Positions 50,205 to 50,958 of a stretch of DNA of 64,000 bases are shown here, piece after piece; within the stretch, counting starts at the first letter, position 1, and each line of letters opens with the position of its first letter. The stretch is taken from NCBI RefSeq assembly GCF_988242995.1, contig NZ_OZ547043.1, one strand, 5' to 3'. The position numbers and the translations under genes were made by a program. The notes below the pieces were generated by a model. That model ran no database searches. It had not been told where the DNA came from and saw only the letters and a program-made list of their open reading frames with translations.

Positions 50205-50958
50205 GATGAAACCCCGCTTTTTTTATTGATCGCACACCTGACAGCTGCCTCTAAAATAGAAGCACCAGAAGTACTGACAGATGTTGCACTGCTGTGTGTA
50301 GTAATAAATCAGCCCTAAATGGGTAAAATATAAAACTAATGGATTACATCTGATTTCAATCTAGCCATTACAAATCTTAAATCAAGTGTTAAACATGTAA
50401 CTAAATGTAACTCGTTATATTAAAATGTTAATCTTAAGGTTTTGTTAAGTTTAGAAATGATAGAAAAGTTGTACATTTGGTTTTTATTGCACAATTTTAA
50501 AAAATCATACAAATGGTGCTAACTTACTAATAATGCATATAAAAAATATTTCGGTGTAGTCCTTTCGTCATGTAAAACGTTGTTGTTTTTTCTTCACACC
50601 TCCGTGGACAATTTTTTACTGCAAAAAGACGAGGTTTGTCACGGCTTGTGCGCAAGACATATCGCAGCAATCAGCGACGGGCAAGAAGAATGGCTGTCTG
50701 GTGATTTTTGATTGCGGAAAACGGAGATTTAAAAGAAAACAAAATATTTTTTTGCGTAGATAACAGCGTATTTACGTGGGTTTTAATACTTTGGTATGAA
50801 CAAAAAAAGAAAAATACAACGCGCGGGTGAGTTATTAAAAATATTTCCGCAGACATACTTTCCATCGTAACGCAGCGTTAACAAAATACAGGTTGCGTTA
50901 ACAACCAAGTTGAAATGATTTAATTTCTTAAATGTACGACCAGGTCCAGGGTGACAAC
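50205..50958. promoter_or_regulatory. divergent csgDEFG / csgBAC control region
   Basis: 754 bp AT-rich intergenic DNA between divergent csgD and csgB starts, with no ORF of 60 aa or more that could be a real gene. Confidence 0.7.

Follow-up and report, generated by a model that had tools for sequence, protein, structure and literature searches.

The 754 bp that separate csgD from csgB at positions 50205..50958 of the window (the whole 64-kb stretch of DNA analysed) are almost certainly the divergent control region of csgDEFG and csgBAC on the chromosome of an Escherichia coli strain, intact and in its usual form. We place the probability of this identification at about 96%, and none of the results obtained contradicts it. 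The region is an ordinary feature that has been described before: the 754-bp csgD-csgB region and its regulators are treated in PMC12713406.

Position, flanking genes and coding content of the spacer

The spacer is exactly 754 bp long and is bounded by two start codons, the ATG of csgD at 50204-50202 (minus strand) and the ATG of csgB at 50959 (plus strand), such that the divergent 754-bp spacer proposed in the preliminary description is exact in its coordinates. It had also been labelled AT-rich, correctly so: G+C amounts to 34.5% here and to 51.0% in the window as a whole, and the lowest value within the spacer, measured in 200-bp windows, is 24.5% (at 50300-50499). Just 1.4% of the 754-bp windows across the 64 kb are equally AT-rich, and the sole stretch to surpass the spacer in this respect lies at ~20.4-22.4 kb.

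The genes on either side are the following.

47859..48692, minus strand: csgG, full length, NCBIfam equivalog above the cut-off
48719..49135, minus strand: csgF, full length, NCBIfam equivalog above the cut-off
49160..49549, minus strand: csgE, full length, NCBIfam equivalog above the cut-off
49554..50204, minus strand: csgD, 216 aa, the biofilm master regulator (NCBIfam NF007505, 356 bits versus a cut-off of 250)
50959..51414, plus strand: csgB, full length, NCBIfam equivalog above the cut-off
51455..51910, plus strand: csgA, full length, NCBIfam equivalog above the cut-off
51968..52300, plus strand: csgC, full length, NCBIfam equivalog above the cut-off

The equivalogs used were NF007701, NF007469 and NF011731 for csgE, csgF and csgG (the minus-strand block 47859..49549), and NF007506, NF007470 and NF007507 for csgB, csgA and csgC (the plus-strand block 50959..52300). 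As previously claimed, all seven csg genes are present; each has the K-12 length, is free of internal stops and scores well above its NCBIfam equivalog cut-off. That genes other than csgD and csgB might flank the spacer was checked and excluded. The Csg proteins differ from those of K-12 by zero to three amino acids, with CsgG and CsgE identical. CsgD, in which Pfam recognises a GerE domain and a VpsT-like REC domain, carries S19P, S46A and S110A, while D59 is kept.

Two elements within the spacer could be taken for an unannotated gene.

50260..50351, minus strand: match to the Rfam family RF02752, "ES056 sRNA" (119.7 bits versus a gathering score of 43)
50671..50865, minus strand: ORF of 64 aa, the only one of at least 60 aa in the spacer

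It is very improbable that either the ORF or an independent ES056 sRNA represents such a gene. The ORF does appear in the mechanical ORF list, but its length is 64, 82 or 44 aa, depending on the allele, among 11 E. coli alleles, and the C-terminal halves of these versions are unrelated, because indels of 1-2 bp in the T-run at ~50741-50748 shift its frame and length. It has no match in Pfam, and the RefSeq records examined contain no annotation inside the csgD-csgB spacer. As a protein gene it is rejected, its frame not being conserved and no family match having been found; the earlier statement that the spacer has no ORF credible as a gene therefore stands. The Rfam match, its high score notwithstanding, begins within one base of the csgD P1 start and lies wholly within the csgD leader, of which it covers the 5′ part (~92 nt), and the simplest reading is thus that it represents a piece of that leader rather than a separate gene. 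The ES056 family itself looks like a csgD leader fragment with no independent gene behind it; we have read the match as the leader and rejected an independent sRNA.

Comparison with K-12 and candidate regulatory sites

A disruptive insertion or deletion relative to K-12 had been named in the preliminary description as the finding that would speak against an intact region. Aligned with the corresponding sequence of K-12 MG1655 (NC_000913.3, 1103197-1103950), the spacer shows nine substitutions and no gaps over 754 columns. The K-12 region has the same length (754 bp), the same flanking genes and the same orientation, and the 19.6 kb that run from serX to trhO at the end of the window are collinear with K-12 at 98.3% identity.

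To number the sites, the transcription start site (TSS) of csgD P1 was set at 50352, which puts the mqsRA-like palindrome of the csgD promoter at its published location of -78 (PMC4894380), with an uncertainty of ~1 base. The substitutions are listed below with the K-12 base first and the distance from csgD P1; the extents of the binding sites are those quoted in PMC4894380 (MqsA, CpxR, IHF), PMC12388358 (H-NS) and PMC3535384 (RcdA).

50432, C>T, -80: in the MqsA palindrome, at the edge of the CpxR box -68..-80 and in the IHF region -37..-96
50444, A>G, -92: in the CpxR box -90..-102 and the IHF region -37..-96
50519, A>C, -167: in the H-NS region +28..-201
50582, C>G, -230: in the initial RcdA region -192..-308
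50594, C>T, -242: in the initial RcdA region -192..-308
50693, A>G, -341: central part of the spacer
50704, C>A, -352: central part of the spacer
50713, A>T, -361: central part of the spacer
50802, T>A, -450: central part of the spacer

The intervals 50353-50431 and 50445-50518 are free of substitutions. In an alignment of 11 alleles, K-12 stands alone at 50704 and 50802 and sides with the minority at 50519. For the central spacer, in which the substitutions at 50693, 50704, 50713 and 50802 are located, no published site coordinates were found in the literature.

The elements that could be located in the spacer are given below.

50205..50352, minus strand: csgD mRNA leader, ~148 nt, from the presumed P1 start to the base before the ATG; 100% identical to K-12
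50299..50553, no strand assigned: footprint regions of H-NS (+28..-201) and RcsB (-31..+54), coordinates from PMC12388358
50358..50363, minus strand: likely -10 hexamer of csgD P1, TAGATT, deduced from its spacing to the start site; unchanged from K-12
50392..50411, minus strand: OmpR-type direct repeat GTTACATTTAGTTACATGTT, centred at -49.5; unchanged from K-12
50420..50454, no strand assigned: two CpxR boxes, -68..-80 and -90..-102, overlapping the IHF region -37..-96, coordinates as quoted in PMC4894380
50430..50441, no strand assigned: mqsRA-like palindrome, -78..-89, AACCTTAAGGTT in K-12 and AATCTTAAGGTT in the window
50544..50660, no strand assigned: initial RcdA binding region, -192..-308, from PMC3535384, with the substitutions at 50582 and 50594 inside
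50464..50498, minus strand: MlrA site, imperfect palindrome AAAATTGTGCA-N12-TGTACAACTTTT, -146..-112; unchanged from K-12
50824..50834, plus strand: CsgD-box-like sequence CGGGTGAGTTA, upstream of csgB; unchanged from K-12

We take the imperfect palindrome to be the exact MlrA motif and, by the Salmonella consensus, the sequence at 50824-50834 to be a candidate CsgD box. The direct repeat at 50392..50411 is presumably the OmpR site known from work on the csgD promoter (Ogasawara 2010). For MlrA, a palindromic site of 33 bp is reported between the IHF and OmpR sites (PMC3913822).

With the sites assigned from the literature and, as just indicated, by assumption, the core P1 promoter of csgD, the OmpR repeat at -49.5 and the MlrA palindrome at -146..-112 are all conserved relative to K-12, as is the leader, and every cis element that we could locate is either identical to its K-12 counterpart or different by one base. 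In the palindrome at -78, K-12 has AACCT and AGGTT on either side of a central TA; the substitution at 50432 turns the first half-site into AATCT and thereby breaks it, the second being retained. By the footprint limits in PMC12388358, the RcsB portion is devoid of substitutions, whereas the H-NS portion holds those at -80, -92 and -167. The preliminary description had called the spacer an integration point for many regulators and the csgD leader a long one targeted by small RNAs. Both statements agree with the literature: regulator sites are reported in PMC3535384, PMC4894380, PMC12388358 and PMC12713406, and the leader, present here as an exact K-12 copy (50205-50352), is targeted by the small RNAs OmrA/B, McaS, RprA, GcvB, RydC and RybB with Hfq (PMC6061853).

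A generic scan of the spacer for promoters and terminators returned no more sites than in shuffled sequence; it missed csgD P1, which matches the consensus at just 8 of 12 positions.

At the other end of the spacer, the 156 bp ahead of csgB (50803-50958) are 100% identical to K-12. A search of the spacer for repeats yielded just short two-copy matches. Upstream of csgB, GCGTTAACAA occurs twice, at 50875 and 50895 (50875-50906), i.e., 20 bp apart; on the minus strand, these repeats form a hairpin, GGTTGTTAACGCAACC, that resembles a terminator and has a T-rich tail behind it. Both the repeats and the hairpin are identical in K-12.

Variation among E. coli genomes and beyond

Some match to the csgD-csgB spacer was found in 5371 of 5426 complete E. 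coli genomes, and 5329 of them contain at least 80% of it in one piece. Sampled spacer alleles measure 743-755 bp and are 97.9-100% identical to that in the window. An intact csgD-csgB region is the norm in the species, in ~98% of complete genomes. This bears directly on the idea that the AT-rich stretch, instead of being a native control region, entered by horizontal transfer and is silenced by H-NS, which might be entertained given the low G+C content (34.5%) and the H-NS footprints over +28..-201 reported in PMC12388358. The spacer is nevertheless core DNA, matched in the great majority of genomes at the same position and between the same flanking genes; it diverges less from K-12 (1.2%) than the surrounding 19.6 kb (1.7%), and it has no mobile-element features. 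A foreign origin is effectively refuted by the species-wide presence and the synteny, and we regard its likelihood as close to nil; the native csgD-csgB control region is the reading that we retain.

An identical copy of all 754 bp occurs in one complete genome, that of E. coli GN02461 (NZ_CP095533.1), a human blood isolate. In the flanks, by contrast, 48 positions within 8.7 kb distinguish the two genomes. Eleven of these 48 differences cluster in ~340 bp of csgG (47898-48234), with the adjacent spacer identical; the clustered changes are all silent relative to K-12 CsgG, and the protein is identical. This distribution suggests a recombination patch in csgG.

Individual alleles were counted by exact short-query searches in complete E. 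coli genomes. The -80T allele (44-mer of the window around 50432) is found exactly in 2064 genomes, the -92G allele (48-mer around 50444) in 58 and the -230G allele (44-mer around 50582) in 56, the latter two each amounting to ~1%. The nine departures from K-12 are variation of the kind normally seen in the population. Polymorphisms of the csgD-csgB region have already been surveyed as markers of host or source (PMC5007776) and examined against the rdar morphotype (bioRxiv 10.64898/2026.04.22.719398).

It could be argued that the spacer is an altered regulatory allele, in which the substitutions at -80 and -92 would weaken repressor binding and make csgD expression stronger, or less dependent on temperature, than in K-12. 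We think this unlikely, even though, with the sites as quoted in PMC4894380, the former falls in CpxR box 1 and the MqsA palindrome and the latter in CpxR box 2 and the IHF region. The -92G allele is certainly rare, in contrast to -80T, a common natural variant, and polymorphisms in the OmpR, IHF and CsgD sites of this region have been linked to semi-constitutive rdar expression in the 2026 preprint cited above. On the other hand, deletion of mqsR, cpxR, rcdA or rstA left the expression of a curli reporter unchanged (2025, PMC12713406), which makes the substitutions less likely to matter, and nothing differs from K-12 in the core promoter, in the OmpR or MlrA site or in the leader. The more specific proposal that -80T together with the rare -92G would let envelope stress repress the csgD promoter less, with stronger or temperature-independent curli production, is more doubtful still, and we hold it to be rather improbable. 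Since 2064 genomes have -80T, breakage of the MqsA palindrome is common in nature, and the intact mqsRA-like palindrome, a peripheral feature of K-12, is therefore not species-defining.

In Salmonella enterica, the region between csgD (agfD) and csgB has, according to its published description, the same divergent architecture as in the window and the same main regulators as in E. coli (OmpR, IHF, MlrA, H-NS and RpoS). Between the two organisms, homology is reported to be low over the stretch that runs from the csgD start site to +54, and H-NS and RcsB are reported to act in opposite ways (PMC12388358). Compared with the Salmonella type, known here from that published description, the spacer in the window is clearly of the E. 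coli type.

Expected function and genomic setting of the curli locus

The spacer is AT-rich, non-coding DNA with sequences that match two back-to-back promoters. According to PMC3535384, PMC12713406, PMC3913822, PMC12388358 and PMC6061853, many transcription factors bind within ~300 bp upstream of csgD P1, and CsgD activates csgBAC. Transcription from csgD P1 (minus strand, TSS at ~50352) would thus be governed by overlapping sites for OmpR, IHF, MlrA, CpxR, RstA, H-NS, RcsB and RcdA, at most ~300 bp upstream, through which signals of osmolarity, envelope stress, stationary phase and c-di-GMP would be integrated, with H-NS and IHF competing on the curved AT-rich DNA. The structured csgD leader of ~148 nt would then be paired by at least seven Hfq-dependent small RNAs, leading to a block of translation or to cleavage. 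CsgD, once made, would act on the csgB-proximal end of the spacer and switch on csgBAC, and with it the curli subunits.

Judged by its sequence, the copy in the window probably works like the published csgD-csgB region. Since its cis elements are K-12-like and the seven genes are intact, we infer that the locus would be competent for regulated curli production. Actual production of curli also requires trans factors that the window does not encode: rpoS, mlrA, ompR, ihfAB, hfq and dgcE/dgcM/pdeR of the c-di-GMP module. Under standard conditions, many natural E. coli make no curli even with their csg loci intact.

Elsewhere in the window, the gene content departs from that of K-12 at several places. 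Between phoH and the tRNA-Ser gene serX (44572-44659), at 42384-44380, pgaABCD, dgcT and ymdE-ycdU are absent (~11 kb in K-12, including IS3). In their place, there is an IS200C-like element next to a gene for a DUF2726 protein of 228 aa (42903..43589), the former with a tnpA ORF that ends at 44276 and a match to Rfam STnc490 at 43685-43808. Among 5426 complete genomes, just 2 cover at least 80% of this 2.8-kb arrangement of DUF2726 gene and IS200C-like element, with 96% identity; in O166:H15 and some other strains, the arrangement occurs without the IS200. Unlike the window, GN02461 retains pgaABCD-dgcT. The strain thus has the curli genes and lacks the operon for PGA, a biofilm polysaccharide, at the phoH-serX site.

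At the junction of appA and cspH (7804-7812), the group 4 capsule cluster gfcABCDE-etp-etk is absent, along with IS1D (~9 kb in K-12, 1041907-1050961); here GN02461 is like the window, appA adjoining cspH directly. The gene efeU (37628-38491, plus strand) has an uninterrupted frame of 287 codons from stop to stop, whereas efeU of K-12 is annotated as a pseudogene, and the spacer between putP and efeU is ~320 bp shorter than in K-12 (37445-37558 versus K-12 1080817-1081253).

If the palindrome at -78 is needed for binding, repression of csgD by MqsA could not be general to the species. Of the variation in the spacer, the rare -92G and -230G alone might interest students of natural variation in curli regulation. 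That the strain has retained a full curli locus, to all appearance regulatable, is a finding of little import beyond annotation.
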